Below are positions 1 to 17,061 of a stretch of 18,297 nucleotides of DNA, one piece after another. How positions within the stretch are numbered: position 1 is the first letter of the stretch; every line of letters starts with the position of its first letter. Source of the stretch: Candidatus Nanohaloarchaea archaeon (GTDB lineage Archaea; Nanohalarchaeota; Nanosalinia; Nanosalinales; Nanosalinaceae); assembly GCA_041640035.1 (NCBI GenBank), contig JBEQBC010000013.1:1-18297 (forward strand), in the 5' to 3' direction. The notes below the pieces were generated by a model, which searched no databases, had not been told where the DNA came from, and saw only the letters and a program-made list of their open reading frames with translations. The translations under genes were made by a program, and so were the position numbers.

Positions 1-1097
1 GTACCTACTCCTTCAGCATTCAGAACAAGTTCAGCGTCCTGAACCGAAGCCGTCTGAGGAATACCGAAGTTCTCAACATCGAAAACACCGGAGACATCAT
101 CACCGAAGAAGCTTCCGAACTGGGCGTTCACATACTTCAATGGATATCGCTCGGTAACAGTTTCCTCAGAACCAAGAGAAGGCTCCTCATTGTAATCAAT
201 ACGCAGCCTGCTTCCGGGATTCAGTATGCTTCCCGTCACGATGAAGCTATCTGTAGAAACGGTGATAGAGTTATTCTGCCCGGATTCAAGCTCCTCAAGC
301 ACCTGATAACGACGGTACTCATTATCTCCAGAAGAACTAAGAGAAGTGGAGTCCGTTACTTCCTGACCATTAACCTCTACGGTTACTTCTCCGCCACCGA
401 AGATACCATCAGAGGTGCGGAAGTTCAGATCAAGTTCTGCGTCCTGCATATCCCAGTCACTCGGCACCTCAACATACTGAGTGGTGTCAAAAGATGCAAA
501 ACTGAAGCCTACATCCTCCGGTATACTTCCTGAAGGCGAGATAGGCGTTATATCCGTTCTCTGTGCCTCAGCGTTTGTCACTCTTGCACGGGCGCGGTAT
601 CCTTCGTTCGATGCGTTCAGCCTGTGTCCAGATACAAGGCTCGATGCTGTTGTGACGAAGCCTGTGTTTTCCGGTCTATCTGTATCTCTTGGAAGTGTAT
701 AGGTGTCTTCACCTTCCCGAATCTGTATCTGGTAAGGACCATCTGTCCTTGGTTCGAAGTATCTTTCCGTGGCTTCTTCTGCATATGTGAAGTTGCCTGA
801 TGCCCAGAGATATGTTATACCATTGAGTACTGTTTTGTCCAGGTCAGAATTCTCCATTACAGAGTTTGCTACCAGTTCGTTCTGGAAGCTTTCATTGTAT
901 ACCTGGAAGGTCTGAGTAGATGCCAGACTCATCGTGTCCCGTGACTCCGTTTTCAGGTTCTCTGCCTGGCTGCCCTGCTGTGTCATACTGCTGTAGTTAG
1001 TGTCCATCATCCCCAGCATCATTACCAGTGTGGCGGACATAACTGTCAGCGCCAGTATCGCGTCGAACGAGAAGTAGAATCCTTTTCTTATCTCCAT
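1..1097 (-). CDS. Large pilin-like surface protein with class III-type signal peptide (5' part only, runs off the window edge; absent from the ORF track)
   Basis: Manual translation from ATG at 1097: MEIRKG/FYFSFDAILALTVMSATLVMMLGMMDTNYSS...QDAELVLNAEGVG, open to position 1. Basic RKG followed by a hydrophobic helix. Overlaps the 3' end of the upstream gene by 10 nt. Several N-X-S/T sequons (NYS, NES, NFT, NAS, NNS). Confidence 0.9.
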   Translation of the reverse strand, partial: MEIRKGFYFSFDAILALTVMSATLVMMLGMMDTNYSSMTQQGSQAENLKTESRDTMSLASTQTFQVYNESFQNELVANSVMENSDLDKTVLNGITYLWASGNFTYAEEATERYFEPRTDGPYQIQIREGEDTYTLPRDTDRPENTGFVTTASSLVSGHRLNASNEGYRARARVTNAEAQRTDITPISPSGSIPEDVGFSFASFDTTQYVEVPSDWDMQDAELDLNFRTSDGIFGGGEVTVEVNGQEVTDSTSLSSSGDNEYRRYQVLEELESGQNNSITVSTDSFIVTGSILNPGSRLRIDYNEEPSLGSEETVTERYPLKYVNAQFGSFFGDDVSGVFDVENFGIPQTASVQDAELVLNAEGVG

Positions 1098-3922
1098 ACT
1101 ACATACTCCAGCTCCACGGGTTGAATGTTCCCTGACCGATTTACGGCCACCTGCCTATCAACAACTATAACGGTTTCAGCTTCCGGTATAGGATCAATAC
1201 CCTGATTGAACGGATTCTCAGATTCCGCTACCACTTCTTCATCTGATTTAACTGATTCTGATACATTATCAAATCCAATCTGGTTCGGACCGTCTTCAGA
1301 CTCGAGTCCTGCCAGGTAGTATACTTTTCCATCACCGAAGTCCTTTCTACAAGCCATACATGCGGCGGGATCTCCTGTCGAGTTAGCGAACACTTTATCC
1401 ACATTTTGGAAGCCTGTCTGTACATTTGAGAACGGAACCTCGTCGCCGACCGAGTACTGCTCTGAGTTGAGCAATGGTTCGACCTGCTGTATCTCAGCAG
1501 TGTCGCTTCCGGGATCCTGAGTGTTCATACCAAATGTGTCCGAAAGGATCGATATATCGTTTCTCGTGTGAAGATAGGTCATGCCAGATTCTACAGCAGA
1601 TCTCAGGATGGCATCATTCTCTATGTTTCCTGGCTGTACATCAACATTCTCTGCGATTACGGTGTTGTAGTTGAGGCTGAGTGAGAAGTCGAAGTAGCCT
1701 AGACGGCTGTTCTGATTGGTTATAAGAGCATCATAGCCGTCATCATCGTTCAGCTGTGTCAGTGAGCCGGCTCTTCTGATTCTTGTGGTTTCCTCAGTCA
1801 CTGAATCGGTATTAGGATTGTAGTACTCTATCTGCTGGTCTGCGTTCTGGTAAACTATTTCCAGCTCCGGATTACCTGTCAGGTCTGCTGCTCCACCGGC
1901 GTAGCTTGCTTGTTGACCTGTATCCGTGTTTTCATCATCTACAGAGTCATAGTATTGTACTGTGTCATCCGCTATATAGATTATCTCCTGGTTTCCTTCC
2001 CTGTCGATATCCTCTGTGCCTCCGAGCGTATCTATCTGGCCTAGAGAGGTGAATTCTGTGACCTGATCGTCCTGGTAATCGTAGTATCCTAGGAAGTCAT
2101 TATCCGTCATGTAAGGAGTTTCAGGGAACCCATCATTATCCAGATCTGAAGGAACACCAATCTCCTTTCCTCTTACATTTGATCCATCTTCTTGAGCGAC
2201 TATAGATGTACCCTGCTCGAAGTCGTAATAATCGAGGTTACGGTTATCGTTGTCAATGTATGCTATCTCCTCTGCACCATCGCCGTCAAGATCAGCTGCT
2301 CCGCCGACATACTGTGCTGTTTCTCTTGAAAGAACTGTGTTCCGATCTTCACGGCTGTAGAAATTCAGGTATCCGCTTCCATCTAGGTAAGCGAACGACT
2401 GGCCGTAACCCGGTATATCTACCTGCCAGCAACCATCATCTGCTCTGATATCCTCTGAACTACCGGTTCTAAGGTATCTTCTAAGCTCTGTCTGTGGATC
2501 CCAGGCTGCGAGATCCTGGTTTCGCTCAGCATCTAGATACAGGACTGACTCCTGGCCATATACCTGTGTGAAGTCTGTTACTCCTTCTGCCTGTACATCG
2601 GATGATTGGAAACTACTTTCAGTGTAGTTCCAGACACCGAAATGATTGTTATTATTTGATAGAGCTGCTACCATTTCATCGCTTATCCATCCGACATCCT
2701 GGACCTGGAAGCTTGTCTCCTCTACAGAATCTGAATTAATATCGTAGAAAGCCAGGTTGCCATCTCCATTCTGGAACGCTACCTCGGTATTACCGTCGCT
2801 ATCTATGTCTCCGGCGCCACCTACCCTTTCCGCGGAGAAAGAGGTCTCAGTCTCTCCACTACCGGAGCTGAAGTATGCAAGTCTATCGTTCCCGTTGGTG
2901 AAGAACACCGTGTTTTCTCCACCCACTGATGCTGTATCCCCGACATCCTGTGCTCCTACCGTGGTTTCCGTGACTTGGTCTTCTTGAACGCTGTAGAATG
3001 CTATCTGGTCGTTATCATCGATATAGATAAGCTCCTGCCCTTCAGTTCCCGTGAAGTCTGCTACCGCTCCCATCCTGGCGAAACTTGTCACGGTACCGAG
3101 TTCTGTAGTAGTCTCTGTCTCCAGATCGTAGATATTCAGTATATCGTCGCCGTCCTTGTAGAACATTTCTCTGTTTCCGTCGCCATCCGGATCTGCTATC
3201 TCGGATGTTACAGCAGCTTCCACTCTTGAACCTATGCTGAACTTGTTGTATCCTTTGTCAGCTGCGTCCGCGATTATTCTCTCCATCATTGGAGGTCCGT
3301 CTCCACCGTTGGTGTAGACTTCTTCAGCTGTCAACTGGTCAAGCTGGTCGCTATCTTCCTCTGACGGGAAGTAGAAGTACCATTCACGGTTTGACTCGTT
3401 CAGATTGTCGAGCATCTCTAGGTTGGAAAGGGATGTACCTGATTGTACGATGTATGCGACTGGCTCCGAACCTATAGCGTTCGCTTCGAATCCCTCCTCC
3501 CCTTCTCCGCCGCCATCTCCACCGTCTTCTCCATTGATGGTTTCGTTCAGTATTTCTCCAGTTCTGGAGTCCCGGAATTCGAGCGTGAAGTTCTGTGTCT
3601 TGGTAAGTGTCTTCCTTCTCTCGTAACTCATGTTTCCGAAGGCTTTGATTTTCTCAGCTGATAGTACATTATCATTTTCTGCGAACCCTGGTATCCTGGC
3701 TTCTACGCCTGGTTCCTCCCAGTTGCTGGGGTATCCTTCTGTGGTTACCATGAAGTCGGCAGTTCTTTCGGCTTGTTTCCGTAGCATGTCTTCTCTGTCG
3801 AAGCTGGTCTGGCTGTCGACGCCGAGGCTCCACATCGTCATGAACAGGGTTAGTATGGCTCCGAAGATGGCTACTGAAGCCATGAAGTCGGTCATGAATG
3901 CCTGTGCCTTCTTATTGTTCAT
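1088..3922 (-). CDS. Pilin-like (class III signal peptide) adhesin candidate with FG-GAP/VCBS-like beta-propeller repeats, 944 aa
   Basis: N-terminus MNNKKA/QAFMTDFMASVAIFGAILTLFMTMW. Repeated DxDxDG-type motifs (DPDGDGNRE, DIDSDGNTE, DLDGDGAEE, DLDNDGFPE). Overlaps both neighbouring genes. Confidence 0.85.
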   Translation of the reverse strand: MNNKKAQAFMTDFMASVAIFGAILTLFMTMWSLGVDSQTSFDREDMLRKQAERTADFMVTTEGYPSNWEEPGVEARIPGFAENDNVLSAEKIKAFGNMSYERRKTLTKTQNFTLEFRDSRTGEILNETINGEDGGDGGGEGEEGFEANAIGSEPVAYIVQSGTSLSNLEMLDNLNESNREWYFYFPSEEDSDQLDQLTAEEVYTNGGDGPPMMERIIADAADKGYNKFSIGSRVEAAVTSEIADPDGDGNREMFYKDGDDILNIYDLETETTTELGTVTSFARMGAVADFTGTEGQELIYIDDNDQIAFYSVQEDQVTETTVGAQDVGDTASVGGENTVFFTNGNDRLAYFSSGSGETETSFSAERVGGAGDIDSDGNTEVAFQNGDGNLAFYDINSDSVEETSFQVQDVGWISDEMVAALSNNNNHFGVWNYTESSFQSSDVQAEGVTDFTQVYGQESVLYLDAERNQDLAAWDPQTELRRYLRTGSSEDIRADDGCWQVDIPGYGQSFAYLDGSGYLNFYSREDRNTVLSRETAQYVGGAADLDGDGAEEIAYIDNDNRNLDYYDFEQGTSIVAQEDGSNVRGKEIGVPSDLDNDGFPETPYMTDNDFLGYYDYQDDQVTEFTSLGQIDTLGGTEDIDREGNQEIIYIADDTVQYYDSVDDENTDTGQQASYAGGAADLTGNPELEIVYQNADQQIEYYNPNTDSVTEETTRIRRAGSLTQLNDDDGYDALITNQNSRLGYFDFSLSLNYNTVIAENVDVQPGNIENDAILRSAVESGMTYLHTRNDISILSDTFGMNTQDPGSDTAEIQQVEPLLNSEQYSVGDEVPFSNVQTGFQNVDKVFANSTGDPAACMACRKDFGDGKVYYLAGLESEDGPNQIGFDNVSESVKSDEEVVAESENPFNQGIDPIPEAETVIVVDRQVAVNRSGNIQPVELEYVVWR
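1681..3205 (-). repeat. About 12 degenerate ~40-48-aa protein repeats (propeller blades) inside the 944-aa gene
   Basis: Consensus by eye: G-(G/A)-x-D-(L/I)-D-x-D-G-x-x-E-(I/V)-x-Y-x-D/N-x(3)-L-x-(F/Y)-Y-D-x(5)-(V/T)-x-E-T. Counted manually. Confidence 0.75.
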
Positions 3923-4761: not shown

Positions 4762-4874
4762 AGTATGTATATATTGTATGCGGGTTAAAATCAGCTTTCC
4801 CACTCAACTTGTTTTTACACCCTTCAATCATAACGCGTTTTTTATATGGCGCCTTGAACAAACGGTTAAACATT
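4762..4874. promoter_or_regulatory. Divergent promoter region for the pilin-like operon (-) and ppsA (+)
   Basis: Minus-strand TTTTAA at 4785-4790. Plus-strand TTTTTATA at about 4839-4846, about 28 nt before the ppsA ATG. Confidence 0.65.
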
Positions 4875-7421
4875 ATGAAAAATGTTCTCTGGTTCGAAAA
4901 CATAAATTCAGATGATACCTCTAAAGTCGGCGGAAAAAGCGCCAACCTCGGAGAGCTACGGAACGAAACAGATGTACCCGTACTACCAGGATTCGCGACC
5001 ACAGCCGACGCATACGACAGATTCATCAAGGAAACCAACTTAAAAGATAAAATAGAAAGACTGCTAGACGGATTAGATACAGATGATGTAACAGACCTCC
5101 AGAAAAGAGGAGAAAAAATCCGGGCACACATCAAGGAAGCAGACATGCCTAAAAGCCTGCGAGAAGACTTCATCCGAAGCTACGAAGAACTTGAGGAAAG
5201 ACTGGGAGTCGACAACCCTGAAGTAGCAGTGCGTTCTTCAGCTACAGCAGAAGACCTTCCAGGAGCATCATTCGCAGGACAGCAGGAAACATACCTGAAT
5301 GTATCAGGCAAACAGGACCTTATCAAAAGAATCAAAGACTGTTACGCCTCACTGTTCACTAATAGAGCTATTTCTTACCGTGAGGACAAAGGATTCAACC
5401 ACTTCGATGTCAAGCTTTCCGCAGTAGTCCAGAAGATGGGGCGGTCCGATATCGGAGCAGCAGGAGTTATGTTCACACTTGACCCTGACTCCGGATTCGA
5501 CAATGTAGTAACCATCAACGGAAGCTACGGACTAGGAGAATATGTAGTACTAGGAGAAGTCAACCCTGACGAGTTCACAGTATTCAAGGAGAACCTTGGA
5601 ATCATCGAGAAGAAACAGGGAGACAAAGAAATCAAACTAGTCAGAGACGACGATGACGAAGACAACGACAACATCGAGAAGAAGACGCCTGAGAGCGAAC
5701 GGAACAGCTACTGTATAACCGACAACCAAGTCAAGGAACTGGCTAAGTACGCGATGAAGATCGAAGAGCACTACGGCAAGCCCATGGATATTGAATGGGT
5801 GCTCGACGGCCAGACCAACGAACTGTACATCGTACAGGCACGACCTGAAACAGTACAGGCAGAGAAAGACGAAAATGTAATAGAAGACTACAAACTCAGA
5901 GAAGAAAGCGAGGTCAAACTGGAAGGAGCTGCGATCGGATCCAAGATCGGAAACGGGAAAGCACATGTGCTTGACAGTCCGAAACAGATCGATCAGTTCG
6001 AGGAAGGACAGGTACTCGTAACCGACATGACCGACCCTGACTGGGAACCTATCATGAAGAAAGCAGGAGCGATCATCACCAACAAAGGAGGAAGAACCAG
6101 CCACGCAGCGATCGTTTCAAGAGAACTCGGCGTACCAGCCGTAATCGGAACAGAGACCGCGACTTCTGATATCACGGACGGAGAAGAGGTCACCGTAGAC
6201 TGTTCATCCAGTAAAGGAAAGATTTGGGAAGGTAAACTTGACTTCGATGTCGAAAGACATCACTTGGACGAGGTACCGGATACAGATACAGATGTACAGG
6301 TCAACATCGGAGAACCTTCAGAGGTATTCCATGTAGCACAGTTACCTGTAGACGGAGTAGGACTCGCAAGAGAAGAGTTCATCATCTCAAGCCATGTAGG
6401 AGAACACCCACTCCACCTGATGGAGGAAGGACGGGAAGACGAATATGTAGAAGCACTGCGCTCCGGAATCGGAAAGATCGGCGCAGCATTCTACCCGGAA
6501 CAGGTAGTAGTACGGCTCTCAGACTTCAAGTCAGATGAATACGCAGAGCTTGAAGGAGGAGAGAAATACGAACCGGACGAAGCCAACCCGATGCTCGGAT
6601 TCAGAGGAGCATCACGGTACTATAGCGAAGAAGCACAGAAAGCATTCGAACTTGAATGTCACGCACTCAGACGCTGCATCGACGAATTAGGACTCGACAA
6701 CCTGACAATCATGGTACCGTTCTGCCGAACAATTGAGGAAGCGAACAAAGTTCGGTCTAAGATGAAGGAGTATGGACTGGACAAAGGCGATGTAGAGCTC
6801 TATGTAATGGCAGAAATCCCATCCAACATCATCCGAGCAGAAGAGTTCGCAGAAGTATTCGACGGATTCAGCGTCGGTACAAACGACCTAACACAGCTAA
6901 CACTCGGAGTAGACCGTAACAGCGACCAGCTCAAACATGTATTCGACGAAAGAGACCCAGCAGTCAAAGAATCAGTCAGCAAGCTGATCGAAAGAGCGCA
7001 CAAACACGGAAACCATGTAGGGATATGTGGAGACGCACCATCTACACACGATGGATACGCAGAATTCCTTGTAAACGAAGGAATCGACGCAATCAGCGTA
7101 TCACCAGATGTAGCACTTGAAACAATCCTCAAGGTAGCGGACGCAGAAGAAGACCGAGATGTAGAAACCGAGGAGCCTGAAGAATCTGAAAGGTCAGGTA
7201 CAGAGGTCTCCGTGAATGTAGATCTGAAGGTCGGAGAAACAGCCGGAAGAATCTACGACAAACTGGATGAACACGGTAGAGCGACCGCAGACAAGCTAAG
7301 CGAACTAACAGGAGAAGCAATCGATGAACGGCTTCTGGAGCAGGGACTTGGATGGCTTGCGAAGGAAGACAAGATCGAGATGAGGAAAGAAGGCGACAAG
7401 ACGATCTACGAGCTCAAATAA
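4875..7421 (+). CDS. ppsA: Phosphoenolpyruvate synthase (pyruvate, water dikinase) with C-terminal winged-helix extension, 848 aa; start at 4875 rather than 4683
   Basis: VGGKSANLGEL, VAVRSSATAEDLPGASFAGQQETYLN, DIEW..LYIVQARPETV, phospho-His motif GGRTSHAAIVSRELG, EANPMLGFRGASRY, FSVGTNDLTQLTLG, GICG. The 4683 start would overlap the divergent pilin gene and the promoter. Confidence 0.97.
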   Translation: MKNVLWFENINSDDTSKVGGKSANLGELRNETDVPVLPGFATTADAYDRFIKETNLKDKIERLLDGLDTDDVTDLQKRGEKIRAHIKEADMPKSLREDFIRSYEELEERLGVDNPEVAVRSSATAEDLPGASFAGQQETYLNVSGKQDLIKRIKDCYASLFTNRAISYREDKGFNHFDVKLSAVVQKMGRSDIGAAGVMFTLDPDSGFDNVVTINGSYGLGEYVVLGEVNPDEFTVFKENLGIIEKKQGDKEIKLVRDDDDEDNDNIEKKTPESERNSYCITDNQVKELAKYAMKIEEHYGKPMDIEWVLDGQTNELYIVQARPETVQAEKDENVIEDYKLREESEVKLEGAAIGSKIGNGKAHVLDSPKQIDQFEEGQVLVTDMTDPDWEPIMKKAGAIITNKGGRTSHAAIVSRELGVPAVIGTETATSDITDGEEVTVDCSSSKGKIWEGKLDFDVERHHLDEVPDTDTDVQVNIGEPSEVFHVAQLPVDGVGLAREEFIISSHVGEHPLHLMEEGREDEYVEALRSGIGKIGAAFYPEQVVVRLSDFKSDEYAELEGGEKYEPDEANPMLGFRGASRYYSEEAQKAFELECHALRRCIDELGLDNLTIMVPFCRTIEEANKVRSKMKEYGLDKGDVELYVMAEIPSNIIRAEEFAEVFDGFSVGTNDLTQLTLGVDRNSDQLKHVFDERDPAVKESVSKLIERAHKHGNHVGICGDAPSTHDGYAEFLVNEGIDAISVSPDVALETILKVADAEEDRDVETEEPEESERSGTEVSVNVDLKVGETAGRIYDKLDEHGRATADKLSELTGEAIDERLLEQGLGWLAKEDKIEMRKEGDKTIYELK

Positions 7422-7450
7422 CTCTTCCCACATTTTCTATCCTTTTCTTC
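7422..7450 (+). terminator. Pyrimidine/T-rich tract after ppsA, probable archaeal terminator
   Basis: CTCTTCCCACATTTTCTATCCTTTTCTTC immediately after the stop codon, followed by TATAAA (7451-7456), the probable tRNA promoter. Confidence 0.5.
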
Positions 7451-7486
7451 TATAAAACTGGTAGCCTATAATTCTAGTTAGTTCGT

Positions 7487-7569
7487 GCCGGGGTAGCCAA
7501 GTGGCCAAAGGCGACGGACTTAAGATCCGTTCCCGTAGGGGTTCACGGGTTCAAATCCTGTCCCCGGCA
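7487..7569 (+). tRNA. trnL: tRNA-Leu (anticodon TAA), no intron, CCA not encoded
   Basis: Acceptor stem GCCGGGG/CCCCGGC plus discriminator A; D-arm GCC..GGC; anticodon arm ACGGA-CTTAAGA-TCCGT; long variable arm; T-arm ACGGG-TTCAAAT-CCTGT. Confidence 0.97.
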
Positions 7570-7574
7570 ATCAG

Positions 7575-10500
7575 TTATTCTCCACTGTACCAGCTATCGG
7601 CTTCCAGAAGTTCTACATTTTGCTCCATGTCTTCAACTTCATCAGCGTGTTTGAGCTCTAGACCCATGCTATCGGATACCTTGGACATGTAGTCCTCGAA
7701 GTACTCTCCGGTATCTATATCTACATCTTTGTACTGGGAGGTGTTGTGGTAAACCATTTCCTCATCTTCCGTAATGAAAGCCTTCACTCTTGCTCTTTCA
7801 CGGCCTTCCTCGTCTTCAGCGTAGAATACCATCTTGTTAGCGTCAACTGCGTTACTTACTGATGCCCAGGCAAAGCTTCCGCCATCAACATCGTGGCATG
7901 AACCAAATCCTCTTCCCATCTGTGTGGTATCCATAGGATCAGCTACATGAAGTGTCAGTTCATCTGGAATTCCGGTTGAACGGTTTTCAACTGCTCTGTA
8001 ATTATTCAGTACATTTTTTGCTTCACCGTAGAGATCGGTTTCTTCAGGATCCATCTCGTCAAGAGTCTGTTCAGCCTCTTCAACCGAGTCGACAGTTCCT
8101 GCACCAAGATCGCTTAGGATTCCGTTCAGTTCAGTCCAGTACTGCTGTTTCTCTGCATCTACATCGAACTCTACACTTTCAGAGTCTATATCAACGGTTA
8201 ATGCGCTTCTGTATCCTTTATCTTCATCATGCCGATAGGTATCGTCTGCTTGGTCAGACAGATCGGGATCAATCATCTGCTCTGCTTCGAAGCCGTGCTC
8301 CTCCAACCACTGCTGATTGCTTTCGAGCTGGTAAACATCGTTCTGATGGCTTAAAAGTGTGTCTACTGTGTCCGAGTGTCCTTCATGCTCTTTTCTAACC
8401 TTCAGTGCAGCTAGCTCATTTTCAGTAAGTTCTTCAGGTCTCTCTCCTGTCGCTTCCTCGTACTCTTCCAGTGCTGCGTTGTATCCTACTTTCTGGAGGT
8501 TTTGCTTCAGGTATCCTCTTAGCTTGCTCTGTACATCTTTCTCCAGTTCCTTTCTTCTATCTTCTTTGAGACTTTCGATATCCTCTGGTTCTGGTTCGAA
8601 GTCTGTGTTCTGTCTGCGGCCTTCCTTTGATTTCAGCATTCCAAAGACATTTGAAGCGTCGTATTCAAGGTCAAGATTGTCTGCGAGGCCTCTGACCGTT
8701 CTAAGCTTTTCGGCCAGTTCCTGATCACTCATCTCACCGTACTCTGTATCTGTATCTTCCTGACCGGTTATCTCATCTATTACCTGTTTGTAAGGAGAAT
8801 CTTCGTCGAAGAAGTCATCTGCTTCAGGCAGATCGCCTTCTAGATCAAGGATTCCCTCTATCTCTTCGACTTCATCATCTACGAAGAAAGTGTATTCACG
8901 GTTGACTGCAATATCGAAAAGTGTGTTTCCGAACTTGCTGTCACCGGAGCTGTACTCTGTTCTTTCTCCGTGCTCTCCTACAAATCCTTCAAGTACTTCC
9001 TCATCTTTCTCTGTTCGAAGCGACTGGTAGATTAGATCTCTTGATTCATCGTCTAGCTGCTGTAGCAGTTCTCCGAATTCACGGAGCTGTTCTCTCTTGA
9101 AATCATCCTCATTAGGTATATCTTCTGCGACCTTCGAGATGATCTGTCCCTGTACGCGTGGATGGAAGTTGTCGTAGACATCTATCAGGTCTGCGTCAGA
9201 ACCAGCTTTACCAATCTGTTGTATTGCTTTAGCTGCGTATTCCTTCCGTAATTCTTCTACCTCTTCTTCCAGTCTCTGCTGTACGCCTTCAAGAGTATCT
9301 TTTTCGAAATCCTGTCCGTCCTGTTTTCTGTCCTGCTGTTCGACGACCCACTGCTCGATATCCAGATCTACATGTTCTCCTGAGAACTCTGCAAGGTATA
9401 CCAGGTTCTCGATTTCCTCGTTCTGTTCAACTGCATCGTTCAGATGTCCTCCAAGAGTTGAGAATCCCTGATGCCAGACACTGTCATCATCCCACTTACC
9501 TTTCAAATCGGATATATCGTAGAACTCCTGTTCACCGGACAGAACCTGTTCAACATACTTGCGGTCCAGGCCCTCTACATCATCGTCTGATACCTTCATC
9601 ATTCCGTTGATCAGGCTTGCGAACATCCTGTTATCTTCATCTGTGAAATCTTTGAGATGTCCTAAACGGGCAGCGATCGCATCCAGTGATTCTTCAGGAT
9701 CTACATCTAGTTCATCGGATAGAAGTTCCTGGAAATACCGTTCATTTGCGAAAAACCGGTTTCTGAAAGTTCTTGCATCATCACCGTATCTTTCAGCACC
9801 AGCGTCGGAATCATGCATCTCCTCTCTTATCTCTCTTGTTCTCTCCATTCTCTCATCGCTGTGAGGAGCTAAACCATCGGGAGCGAATATAGGAAGACCG
9901 TAAATCTCATCTTCTCTTTCCTTAACTTCCTGTTTGAAGCTGTTCCAGTCGTCCCAGTTGAAGCCTGTGCTTTCCATGTCACGGGCCGGGAATGTCGCGT
10001 CATTTTGGTATGTTCTGCTGCTTTTAGGCGTTACTACGAACATATCGCCGTCAGTATCATCTATATCTATATCATCTGCAATGACCAGTCCTCCTACGGA
10101 CTCATTATCAAGTTTCTGTATATCTATATTACTTGAAACAACTGTAGGGAGATTTGACCTTTTGAAAGCCGCATTAGAGTAGTCTCTAGGTGTACTAACT
10201 TTTGTTAGGTCTCCGAAATGGCTGATATTGTGAGATTCTCTGGCAAAATGTCTTCCGTACTCGGCGTCTCCCTCTATCGCGTTAACAGAGGAGTTTTTGA
10301 GAACGGTCTTTCCTGCAACATCTCCTCTGACTGTTCCTACTGTAGAATCTTCGATGGCGACCGTAGATTCAAGCGAACTTGTCGGAACCTGTACTGATCC
10401 TACTGATTCTATTTCCATGTCCTGGACTCCATGGGCGTATTCAGAGTTTTCGATAGTTACATCTCCGAAATGTTCCTCTTCCTCATTTGCTTCTGAGGGA

Positions 10501-10580
10501 GTCAGGGCTTCAACTACTGTGTCGGTTTCCTCTTGACCGTCGAGGTGGAGATCCCGGAGGTTTTGATCGGAGGCACTCAT
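7575..10580 (-). CDS. Large acidic hypothetical protein, 1001 aa: beta-rich N-terminus, helical/coiled-coil middle, globular C-terminal domain with a GSC motif
   Basis: Long uninterrupted ORF with halophile-like composition. No signal peptide or TM segment visible. TTATAT box about 24-29 nt upstream of the ATG. Confidence 0.9.
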   Translation of the reverse strand: MSASDQNLRDLHLDGQEETDTVVEALTPSEANEEEEHFGDVTIENSEYAHGVQDMEIESVGSVQVPTSSLESTVAIEDSTVGTVRGDVAGKTVLKNSSVNAIEGDAEYGRHFARESHNISHFGDLTKVSTPRDYSNAAFKRSNLPTVVSSNIDIQKLDNESVGGLVIADDIDIDDTDGDMFVVTPKSSRTYQNDATFPARDMESTGFNWDDWNSFKQEVKEREDEIYGLPIFAPDGLAPHSDERMERTREIREEMHDSDAGAERYGDDARTFRNRFFANERYFQELLSDELDVDPEESLDAIAARLGHLKDFTDEDNRMFASLINGMMKVSDDDVEGLDRKYVEQVLSGEQEFYDISDLKGKWDDDSVWHQGFSTLGGHLNDAVEQNEEIENLVYLAEFSGEHVDLDIEQWVVEQQDRKQDGQDFEKDTLEGVQQRLEEEVEELRKEYAAKAIQQIGKAGSDADLIDVYDNFHPRVQGQIISKVAEDIPNEDDFKREQLREFGELLQQLDDESRDLIYQSLRTEKDEEVLEGFVGEHGERTEYSSGDSKFGNTLFDIAVNREYTFFVDDEVEEIEGILDLEGDLPEADDFFDEDSPYKQVIDEITGQEDTDTEYGEMSDQELAEKLRTVRGLADNLDLEYDASNVFGMLKSKEGRRQNTDFEPEPEDIESLKEDRRKELEKDVQSKLRGYLKQNLQKVGYNAALEEYEEATGERPEELTENELAALKVRKEHEGHSDTVDTLLSHQNDVYQLESNQQWLEEHGFEAEQMIDPDLSDQADDTYRHDEDKGYRSALTVDIDSESVEFDVDAEKQQYWTELNGILSDLGAGTVDSVEEAEQTLDEMDPEETDLYGEAKNVLNNYRAVENRSTGIPDELTLHVADPMDTTQMGRGFGSCHDVDGGSFAWASVSNAVDANKMVFYAEDEEGRERARVKAFITEDEEMVYHNTSQYKDVDIDTGEYFEDYMSKVSDSMGLELKHADEVEDMEQNVELLEADSWYSGE

Positions 10581-15663: not shown

Positions 15664-17061
15664 ATGGTCAACCTGAAGCAGTTATTCAAAGATCTGAAAG
15701 AAAGCCTGTCAACAGCTGAACAGGACGCAGAAAGACTTAACACGGATGAAGAAAAAGAGATGAAGTACCTGAACCGGGAAGATGTACCCCGGTCACTGGA
15801 AATTTTCTCAGAGGAAGTCGACCTAGCAGTACAGCTGACCGAACACCTGGAAAACGCTGAAGAAGACGAACTACAGGCAGAAAAGTTTTTGAAGGACTCA
15901 GATGTACCGGAAGAAATCCGGGAAAGGTTCATGGAATCGGAGCAGGAAGTCGAAGGACTGGTGAAGAAAGCATTAGACGAGATGCAGACCTTGAAGAAAG
16001 AAGCCGAGATGCTGGAAGGCCAGATACAGAGCTCGGATGTACCGCAGGAAGCAGTCGAAGAGTACAGATCGGATAAACAGGAACTGAAACAGGCATTGAA
16101 TAACATGCAGGAAGTACAGCAGGAAGGAGAAATGATGATAAGCCGAAGAAATGCATTAGGCGTGATAGCAGGAGCTGCAGCAGGATCAGCATGGGCTATG
16201 AACCGGAAGATAAACCAGATAAGCAGGAAAGCAGAGAAACTAATAGAACAAAGAGAACGGAGACTTGAGGAAACTCAGAGAGCAACTAAAAAAGAAGCAT
16301 CTAAACCAAATACCGAGGTAAAAGGCGGCAAAGACCATGTAATGGAACAGATCAGTATCGGCGAGGACATCTACGCCAGATTAAATGTGGTAAGGACCTC
16401 TCCTACAACCGCATTAACTTATATCGAGATACAGAACAGGTCAAACCAGAAACAGAAACTGGAGCTTGAACTCTCACCTGAAAACTGGGAGATCACTACC
16501 GTACTGAACTTTTCGTCGGACAGGAAAAACAAGCCGGTCCAGACAGTAGAACTGACACCGGAAAGCAACTTTGAAGCCGGCGGACTGCTCAGAAGAACCA
16601 GTAGCAAAGCAGGAAGAGTAAAGTACAAAGTATCAACAGGAAAACAGTCAGAGACAATGCGTCTAAACCCTCCAGCAAAGACCTCCATGAACTCAGTTAA
16701 ACCAGAAGATGTATCAGGAGTAGAGATCGAGTACAGAAGAGAAACTGACTCGAAGAAAGCCGATCAAGAACTGAAATTCAGTATGGAGAACACCTCCGGT
16801 CAAAAACTCAATATACAGGCAACTTTGATACTGCCAGGAGGCTGGACAGCGGAAGGATTCGAAAACCTTGACAGTTCCGGAGCAGGTATGTACAGCATCT
16901 CATCAGATCTCAGGAACAGAGCGGTTGACGGATTCAACTTATACATAAGCAAAGAAGCAACAAAGGCATCTAAAGCAGCAGCCCTCTCTGTAGCGGTAAT
17001 AGATGATAAACAACCGGAGAAAATCCAGGACTACATAATTCCGGTGGCACTGGAACAATGA
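15664..17061 (+). CDS. 465-aa protein: acidic coiled-coil N-terminus, internal RR motif plus hydrophobic helix, two Ig-like beta-sandwich repeats
   Basis: MMISRRNALGVIAGAAAGSAWAM at aa 157-179. Repeats IEIQNRSNQKQKLELELSPENW and FSMENTSGQKLNIQATLILPGGW. Confidence 0.87.
   Translation: MVNLKQLFKDLKESLSTAEQDAERLNTDEEKEMKYLNREDVPRSLEIFSEEVDLAVQLTEHLENAEEDELQAEKFLKDSDVPEEIRERFMESEQEVEGLVKKALDEMQTLKKEAEMLEGQIQSSDVPQEAVEEYRSDKQELKQALNNMQEVQQEGEMMISRRNALGVIAGAAAGSAWAMNRKINQISRKAEKLIEQRERRLEETQRATKKEASKPNTEVKGGKDHVMEQISIGEDIYARLNVVRTSPTTALTYIEIQNRSNQKQKLELELSPENWEITTVLNFSSDRKNKPVQTVELTPESNFEAGGLLRRTSSKAGRVKYKVSTGKQSETMRLNPPAKTSMNSVKPEDVSGVEIEYRRETDSKKADQELKFSMENTSGQKLNIQATLILPGGWTAEGFENLDSSGAGMYSISSDLRNRAVDGFNLYISKEATKASKAAALSVAVIDDKQPEKIQDYIIPVALEQ

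Follow-up and report, generated by a model that had tools for sequence, protein, structure and literature searches.

A nanohaloarchaeal PEP synthase carries a conserved C-terminal DUF2582 winged helix with a predicted self-pairing surface

Introduction

The stretch of DNA analysed here (the window) comprises positions 1 to 18,297 of contig JBEQBC010000013.1 of Candidatus Nanohaloarchaea archaeon (assembly GCA_041640035.1). On its plus strand lies a gene for phosphoenolpyruvate (PEP) synthase, PpsA, which continues in frame into a small C-terminal winged helix of the DUF2582 family (PF10771), hereafter the tail. The whole of one nanohaloarchaeal family retains the fusion, including members in which the enzyme portion has decayed, and the tail therefore seems to have a job of its own, with protein pairing more likely than DNA reading.

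Results

PEP synthase is fused in frame to a DUF2582 winged helix

The fusion gene occupies positions 4875..7421 (+) and encodes 848 amino acids plus a stop, as defined by its translation, its Pfam and NCBIfam matches and a start common to relatives. On the plus strand the frame runs ...ISVSPDVALETILKVADAEE, then DRDVETEEPEESERSGTEVSVNVDLK, then VGETAGRIYDKLDEHGRATADKLSELTGEAIDERLLEQGLGWLAKEDKIEMRKEGDKTIYELK, and ends at the stop codon 7419-7421 with no internal stop in the translation; that is, it passes from the PpsA C-terminus, ...ISVSPDVALETILKVADAEE, via an acidic stretch to VGETAGRIYDKL...GLGWLAKEDKIEMRKEGDKTIYELK.

The body of the protein has the three domains of a PEP synthase: the PPDK_N ATP-grasp nucleotide-binding domain (residues 17-339; 4923..5891, +; PF01326, 421.3 bits), the PEP-utilizers mobile (swivel) domain (residues 375-445; 5997..6209, +; PF00391, 96.2 bits), which contains GGRTSH with His410 at 6102-6104, and the PEP-binding TIM-barrel domain, PEP-utilizers_C (residues 470-748; 6282..7118, +; PF02896, 207.6 bits), which contains NPMLGFRGASRY, GTNDLTQ and GICGD, with Cys718 at 7026-7028. 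GGRTSH, NPMLGFRGASRY, GTNDLTQ and GICGD were all intact in the window protein in two alignments (A3 and A4); H410 was invariant and C718 kept in at least 90% of the rows in A4, and both residues were also present in A3. From the PPDK and PpsA literature, we take the His of GGRTSH and the Cys of GICGD to have catalytic roles. The motifs and the domain architecture thus predict a catalytically intact PEP synthase. The protein scored 1071 bits against the NCBIfam PpsA equivalog NF005057 (cut-off 598), with the match confined to residues 2-761, and 1047 bits against TIGR01418 (cut-off 739.75), with the match ending at residue 758. The approximately 87 C-terminal residues that lie outside these family models consist of an acidic linker and DUF2582.

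The linker (approximately residues 760-784; 7152..7226, +) is acidic, variable and disordered, as indicated by the predicted local distance difference test (pLDDT) scores of AlphaFold2 (AF2), by its composition, by the ratio of nonsynonymous to synonymous substitution rates (dN/dS) and by an insertion in a related contig. The AF2 model of the full-length protein had a mean pLDDT of 82.5; the values fell below 50 for residues 764-784, and the tail formed a separate domain with values of 77-88. Across 43 relatives, the linker was 17-43 residues long (median 19) and 35% Asp plus Glu. A related contig from sequencing run X2 has an in-frame 9-nucleotide insertion at window position 7158, repeating the local D-V-E codons; the length of the linker is therefore polymorphic among close relatives.

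The tail (residues 785-848; 7227..7418, +) has the order H1-S1-H2-H3-wing, with LGWLAKE at residues 825-831, and was defined by Pfam, AF2 and Foldseek. PF10771 (cut-off 24.2 bits) matched residues 785-843 of the whole protein with 44.9 bits and the last 93 residues alone with 49.5 bits (E 4.7e-13); in a search of the genome, it matched 7227-7403 with 49.4 bits. An AF2 model of the tail, built from an alignment of 47 fused tails, had a pLDDT of 90.8; in it, a short strand separates H1 from H2, and H3 leads into a wing of two strands (S2-S3). Its first-ranked Foldseek match was 2L01, a nuclear magnetic resonance structure of a DUF2582 protein (E 3.1e-4, template modelling (TM) score 0.79, root-mean-square deviation 1.6 A), followed by the archaeal centromere-binding protein AspA and by regulators of the ArsR/HlyU/MarR type. 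A likeness to Z-DNA-binding (Zalpha) domains, at Foldseek ranks 31 and 50, was rejected as ordinary winged-helix similarity; the tail, in our judgement, lacks the Zalpha contact motif.

The fusion is not an assembly error, because contigs from other studies bridge the junction and because it recurs family-wide, the latter being the stronger evidence. Run X1, possibly the source sample itself, contains a contig piece that is identical to the window and spans 7044-7295, and approximately 93% identical contigs from two other studies (X2 and X3) run unbroken over 6600-7515. The 9-nucleotide linker insertion is the sole indel within the gene among the bridging contigs. A sequence-only reading had described the end of PpsA followed by an acidic linker and a winged helix, had assigned the winged helix to DUF2582 from its signature motifs and had stated that canonical PpsA has no such domain. 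Translation and Pfam bear out the first point; the Pfam score, which exceeded the cut-off for the last 93 residues, the AF2 fold and the match to 2L01 bear out the second; and the end of the equivalog match at residue 761, together with the tail-less PpsA of sister families (see below), agrees with the third. The contig support across the linker that this reading had called for was also found, with no stop, excluding an assembly error.

The fusion marks one nanohaloarchaeal family

The survey took in 70 genomes of the phylum, queried both with PF10771 and with the PpsA core; odd cases were inspected individually. The tail was found on a PpsA or PpsA-like gene in 48 of the 50 genomes of one nanohaloarchaeal family (f1), which includes the window genome. 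The DUF2582 match lay within a frame of 835-1290 residues in 40 of the 50 and in contig-cut, masked or decayed frames of 353-713 residues in six; in one genome the PpsA frame leaves the contig 28 residues into the tail, and in one the gene is split into overlapping frames of 635 and 157 residues. PpsA was not found in two of the 50, each 79% complete. Every family genome with a PpsA or PpsA-like gene therefore carries the tail (48/48). The record titled Ca. Nanosalina sp. J07AB43 (L096) has its tail in a frame of 157 residues.

DUF2582 was absent from all nine full-length PpsA frames (758-781 residues; nine genomes) in four sister families; two of these frames end ...ADAEEKHRG and ...ADAEGS. 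Four sister-family genomes of one genus have DUF2582 only as a stand-alone protein of 77-111 residues. In a protein tree from which rows shorter than 500 residues were left out, tail-bearing PpsA formed one clade (Shimodaira-Hasegawa-like approximate likelihood ratio test (SH-aLRT) support 99) with tail-less PpsA outside it, and a single gain of the fusion, in the ancestor of this one family, therefore fits the data.

One family genome has, beside its tail-bearing copy, a second, tail-less PpsA (G038:C13:20642-22873; a 776-residue frame, 61% identical), for which contamination and transfer from a different family are possible origins. In one relative (L032 306-4175), the PpsA frame of 1290 residues contains an intein of approximately 413 residues with a LAGLIDADG homing-endonuclease domain. 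Its insertion site, flanked by GGRT and SHAA, lies two residues ahead of the catalytic His; the first residue of the intein is Cys, its last residues are ...VSN, and Ser follows.

The fusion was not found outside the phylum in the limited samples searched. A scan of one genome per species with one peptide pattern kept the best 80 of 291 relatives; 36 of these had long frames, and the other 44 were small frames of 70-158 residues from bacteria. The records of the 36 long frames were titled Nanohaloarchaea, Nanosalina, Nanohalobium or 'uncultured archaeon', except for one titled 'Colwellia polaris'. A 10,039-base record titled 'MAG: Colwellia polaris' (L074) encodes a PpsA-DUF2582 protein whose tail is 77% identical to that of the window; it is probably mislabelled or mis-binned, because its title does not fit its content. 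A profile search of a library of 1.84 billion proteins gave 1420 matches, of which the best 150 were listed and 23 of these 150 representatives were scanned with Pfam; each long protein with a C-terminal DUF2582 among those scanned was PpsA-like. These library samples would miss any PpsA that, elsewhere, is joined to a more remote DUF2582. A word-index search with the tail gave four clusters, all of them PpsA fusions, and was too insensitive for a survey of architectures.

The tail is under purifying selection and outlives the catalytic motifs

The tail is under strong purifying selection. Its dN/dS was 0.008-0.056 in the seven of 14 pairs with a finite tail dS (0.49-2.37); in the other seven, tail dS was saturated and gave no ratio. 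The values for the body were similar (0.015-0.129), unlike those for the linker, which were the highest of the three regions (0.023-0.651). The tail evolves faster than the enzyme, with 41-51% identity between most genera versus approximately 75-87% for the enzyme core. Seven columns are invariant and seven nearly invariant across the 47 fused tails, among them G9, A12, G48, W49, L50 and E53 in tail numbering.

The profile search also revealed seven divergent clusters of PpsA-like proteins, 695-828 residues long, that keep the tail (P0035, P0032, P0050, P0021, P0059, P0017 and P0154). Their identity to the window protein was 18-49% in the enzyme domains and 37-42% in the tail, the latter no lower than in the canonical proteins of other genera; in the most diverged copies, a body of 18-26% identity precedes an intact tail. 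GICGD was lost in all seven clusters and the NPMLGFRGASRY block was deleted in six, the catalytic His was without a counterpart in three, the lysine of the ATP-grasp GGK was lost in three, and the PEP-binding domain was undetected by Pfam in five. Copies of this decayed type occur in five genomes of the family, at loci defined by motif loss, an open frame and a kept tail (L037 1-2058, L041 1284-2906, L046 839-2977, L065 999-3337 and L067 2630-4480). In the GTDB genomes, their flanks are those of canonical ppsA, with aIF6 upstream and conserved small open reading frames (ORFs) downstream. They are therefore diverged orthologues rather than an old paralogue, and their long intact frames at such divergence argue that they are still selected, the tail being the best-kept part. 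We consider them probable pseudoenzymes. The tree joined four strongly decayed copies (SH-aLRT 96) on end branches of 2.5-6.8 changes per column; because such branches permit long-branch attraction, we did not count independent decay events.

Since the tail survives in orthologues without the catalytic motifs, its role cannot simply be to report PpsA catalysis, and the selective constraint on it appears, from these comparisons, to be independent of that catalysis. The same observations bear on whether the fusion is a neutral accident, in which loss of a stop codon joined ppsA to a downstream small gene and left a tail without function. Read-through gene fusions do occur, and stand-alone DUF2582 genes are present in the phylum; nonetheless, the low dN/dS of the tail, its invariant columns, its presence in all 48 family genomes with the gene and its intactness behind bodies of 18-26% identity make such an origin highly improbable.

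The DUF2582 signature motifs form a modelled pairing surface

When two copies of the 70-residue tail were folded together, the model reached an interaction score (ipSAE) of 0.65, versus 0.02 for the best of three controls. Of the proteins solved as same-chain pairs, 20 of 30 attained this mark, as did one of 23 solved as single chains; both counts are rough here, because our own alignment was used. The two-copy runs agreed in at least 95% of contacts, and the partner pLDDT was at least 83. The modelled interface comprises tail residues 8-9, 12, 27, 40-41, 44-49, 51-53, 58 and 65, with W49-W49 (that is, W827-W827), G48-G48 and K52-K52 as the closest pairs; in protein numbering, it is formed by G787 and A790 at the start of helix 1 and, above all, by residues 822-831 of helix 3 (QALGWLAKE; N/E-Q-x-x-G-W-x-x-K-E). 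It coincides with the invariant columns G9, A12, G48, W49, L50 and E53, and helical periodicity places N/E44, Q45, G48, W49 and K52 on one face of helix 3. Both motifs that define DUF2582 are thus, in the model, the pairing surface. A tight helix-helix crossing requires just such a combination of an exposed, invariant Trp with a neighbouring invariant Gly. Two chains are present in each of the PDB entries 2L01 and 2L02.

We propose that, in the ancestor of the family, PpsA gained a C-terminal DUF2582 on a short, flexible, acidic tether, and that two tails would pair via the exposed face of helix 3 and the start of helix 1. Such pairing would clamp the PpsA dimer or join dimers into larger assemblies; docking of other DUF2582 proteins onto the tail would be just as conceivable. 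Self-association is taken from the model only, and its effect on quaternary structure would follow from it by inference. We give about an even chance to this proposal, in which the tail acts as a docking module by associating with itself and thereby clamps PpsA dimers or links them to one another.

Several points weigh against this proposal. The pairing is a matter of model confidence, not a measurement, and the two-copy result may reflect memory of the two-chain DUF2582 entries 2L01 and 2L02; it shows likeness rather than pairing of this copy. A dimeric winged helix would also be expected of a DNA-binding regulator, so that DNA contact via the wings or helix 2 is compatible with pairing. Per 100 residues of the window protein, the net charge is -6 in the tail and -9 in the enzyme body, the tail being the less acidic of the two, and one library protein, P0104, joins DUF2582 to a response-regulator receiver, a combination in which the output is usually taken to be DNA binding. 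The fused tails also have a conserved patch of their own, HG-K-A-T-A-x-K-L...T, most of which lies outside the modelled interface. Moreover, the gain from tail pairing on an already dimeric enzyme is not evident.

Fused and stand-alone DUF2582 differ in their basic residues

The window genome and many of its relatives also encode a stand-alone DUF2582 protein of approximately 66 residues. The fused and stand-alone subfamilies align at 28% identity (hhalign probability 99.1) and have in common the G-x-x-A-G of helix 1 and the G-W-L-A-(K/R)-E-x-K of helix 3. Relative to the stand-alone proteins, the fused tail has a two-residue insertion before helix 3 and Y for W in helix 1. In the stand-alone copies, helix 3 begins with conserved basic residues (R, 0.78; K, 1.00) and the wing tip carries another (R, 1.00), whereas the same three columns are basic in only 0.11, 0.23 and 0.04 of the fused tails, which have an acidic wing. 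For their part, the fused tails keep a K at tail position 29 together with D39, Q45 and Y67.

Among the closest relatives found by the library profile search, tandem DUF2582 proteins of two to four copies are common, which fits a domain that works in pairs. The architectures seen among P0006, P0009, P0013, P0011, P0012, P0023, P0026 and P0104 were two to four tandem copies, two copies with a long coiled-coil-like region and, once, DUF2582 behind a receiver.

In the window's own genome, the stand-alone gene lies on contig C8, 29 nucleotides upstream of a gene for approximately 320 residues (L001 1498-1701 and 1731-2687), and the same gene pair occurs in a second genus (L066 1039-1233 and 1237-2199). 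The larger gene is presumably that of an M29-type aminopeptidase.

The coexistence of fused and stand-alone copies raises the possibility that the tail pairs via the same surface with a stand-alone DUF2582 or another partner, either recruiting PpsA or sequestering the small protein. Their interface residues are near-identical (NQALGWLAKE versus NMAIGWLARE), and the basic residues kept by the stand-alone copies are typical of DNA contacts, so that sequestering these copies could regulate transcription. Yet PF10771 was present only in fused form, at E <= 0.001, in three of eight single-contig family genomes (G046, G058 and G065; 95-99% complete), and the tail therefore cannot rely on a stand-alone partner everywhere; furthermore, no gene neighbourhood joins the two, the stand-alone gene adjoining instead the aminopeptidase-like gene. 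We regard this heterotypic docking as unlikely.

A ppsA promoter module and the case for DNA reading

The start of ppsA is likely ATG 4875 (848 residues) rather than GTG 4683, which was given by the ORF list, because relatives start at the same M (MKNVLWFENI) and a TATA-like element lies approximately 30 nucleotides upstream. Comparison of loci revealed a conserved promoter module, ATSAYAACR-N4-T-rich TATA-like box, 27 nucleotides before this ATG (4827..4848, +). Its fuller form, CCAC-N8-ATSAYAACR-N4-TTTTTAWATGG, lies upstream of ppsA in L033-L064; nearly every one of the 26 family loci compared has it, with a start 40-44 nucleotides ahead of the ATG, and it was not seen upstream of either of the two tail-less PpsA genes compared (L069 and L070). 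A pattern search allowing at most one mismatch found one match in the whole 978,572-base genome, and none for a control pattern. The module is non-palindromic.

Such a module, specific to ppsA and unique in the genome, would suit a trigger enzyme whose tail binds DNA and so links the enzyme to transcription, as the sequence-only reading had suggested for PEP/pyruvate status. The resemblance of the fold to the DNA-binding winged helices that follow 2L01 in Foldseek, the receiver fusion and the relatively low acidity of the tail point the same way; fused regulators of this kind are known in archaea (RbkR, see Discussion), and decayed bodies that keep the tail would fit a change from enzyme to regulator. 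However, the co-occurrence of module and tail may be shared ancestry only, and a symmetric dimer would be expected to read a palindrome. Pairing as modelled buries the exposed face of helix 3, so that the canonical DNA-reading surface would be unavailable; this, together with the loss of the basic residues and the acidic wing, lowers the probability of this reading. The most decayed bodies also lack the ATP-grasp GGK and are therefore unlikely ligand sensors. We consider a DNA-binding trigger enzyme improbable; in particular, a link from PEP/pyruvate status to transcription is not supported. Of the 'nucleic-acid-binding or docking module' of the earlier reading, the docking half fits better and the nucleic-acid-binding half fares poorly.

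The neighbourhood of the gene was uninformative. Pfam found no family for 12 of the 17 window ORFs, and no metabolic gene adjoins ppsA. A tRNA-Leu(TAA) gene lies 3' of it at 7486-7570. A look-up of transcript data listed no RNA sample that contains the stretch. The window ORFs at 1088-3922 (-), 7575-10580 (-) and 15664-17061 (+), of 944, 1001 and 465 residues, had no Pfam match at E <= 0.001, and the small neighbours match only haloarchaeal DUF families (DUF7266 and DUF7260). The window genome (978,572 bases in 24 contigs, 89% complete) contains a pyruvate kinase gene; a PSRP/DUF299 regulator was not found in it at this completeness.

Discussion

Residues 1-761 of the window protein share the full three-domain architecture and motifs of canonical PpsA (NF005057 and TIGR01418), which lacks the extra C-terminal residues. 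A dimeric PpsA structure is PDB 2OLS, as cited in a preprint on archaeal PpsA (bioRxiv 10.1101/2022.08.11.503304). According to the same preprint, a C-terminal oligomerisation motif builds 24-mers of PpsA in hyperthermophilic archaea. Those enzymes (of Pyrococcus furiosus, and the MAPS of Staphylothermus marinus) are likewise archaeal PpsA with a C-terminal self-assembly element beyond the catalytic dimer, assembly being only modelled in our case. Their element, as described there, is alpha-helical, lies within the PEP-binding domain near its C-terminus and has a Met that coordinates iron, whereas that of the window protein is a separate winged helix on a disordered tether. Another C-terminal winged helix, that of DprA in Gram-negative bacteria, docks a protein and not double-stranded DNA, and PF10771 is among the profiles that it matched, as reported in bioRxiv 10.1101/2024.10.21.619469. 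DprA, too, is thus a larger protein with a small C-terminal winged helix serving as a docking module; its host protein, its partner ComM and its bacterial setting are different, and its likeness to the window tail is one of description. Both the 24-mer motif and the DprA winged helix may serve as functional analogies for a self-associating docking tail.

The stand-alone DUF2582 proteins (2L01 and 2L02; approximately 65-80 residues) share the Pfam family, the fold and the IG-x-x-AG and GWLA(K/R)E signature of the tail; they are unfused, unlike the enzyme-bound tail, and the nanohaloarchaeal ones keep the R-x-K and wing-tip R that the tail has lost. Trigger enzymes also join a metabolic enzyme to a (winged) helix-turn-helix (HTH) domain: BirA and PutA are enzyme-regulator fusions in which, as in RbkR, the HTH is N-terminal and DNA binding has been demonstrated, whereas the tail of the window protein is C-terminal and its helix 3 is occluded in the model. 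The archaeal RbkR combines a winged HTH with riboflavin kinase (PMC5397151).

In the literature searched, we found no mention of DUF2582, nothing on a PpsA fusion in work naming PF10771, and no paper combining PEP synthase, a C-terminal winged helix and archaea. Two nanohaloarchaeal genome papers (PMC7443923 and PMC9563170) treat PEP synthase as an ordinary enzyme in the parts available. Precomputed Pfam strings in databases already list the four domains together. The architecture is thus visible in databases and undescribed in the papers searched, and the sequence-only reading likewise knew of no description; it is widespread only inside one family and uncharacterised, and it represents a variant form of a known enzyme rather than a new kind of system.

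A broader view is that PpsA-DUF2582 is a dual-role protein, in which a non-catalytic role mediated by the tail (assembly, scaffolding, or control of a free DUF2582 protein and so of transcription) is conserved more strongly than the enzyme, which has decayed to a pseudoenzyme in several lineages. We hold this view to be speculative and rather doubtful. Nanohaloarchaeal symbionts with genomes of approximately 1 Mb store glycogen and live off haloarchaeal hosts, and PpsA is their gluconeogenic entry enzyme, according to PMC7443923. If the dual-role view is true, a transition from enzyme to regulator, or from enzyme to scaffold, would have been caught at intermediate stages in a genome-reduced symbiont.

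A tail selected across a whole family gives the functionally uncharacterised DUF2582 family its first concrete handle, a testable candidate surface for self-pairing that consists of the family's own signature motifs. The decayed orthologues, taken as a series, are natural material on how an enzyme acquires a non-catalytic role. As these orthologues lose the catalytic motifs and keep the tail, maps of central metabolism drawn from the presence of pps can mislead for some nanohaloarchaea.

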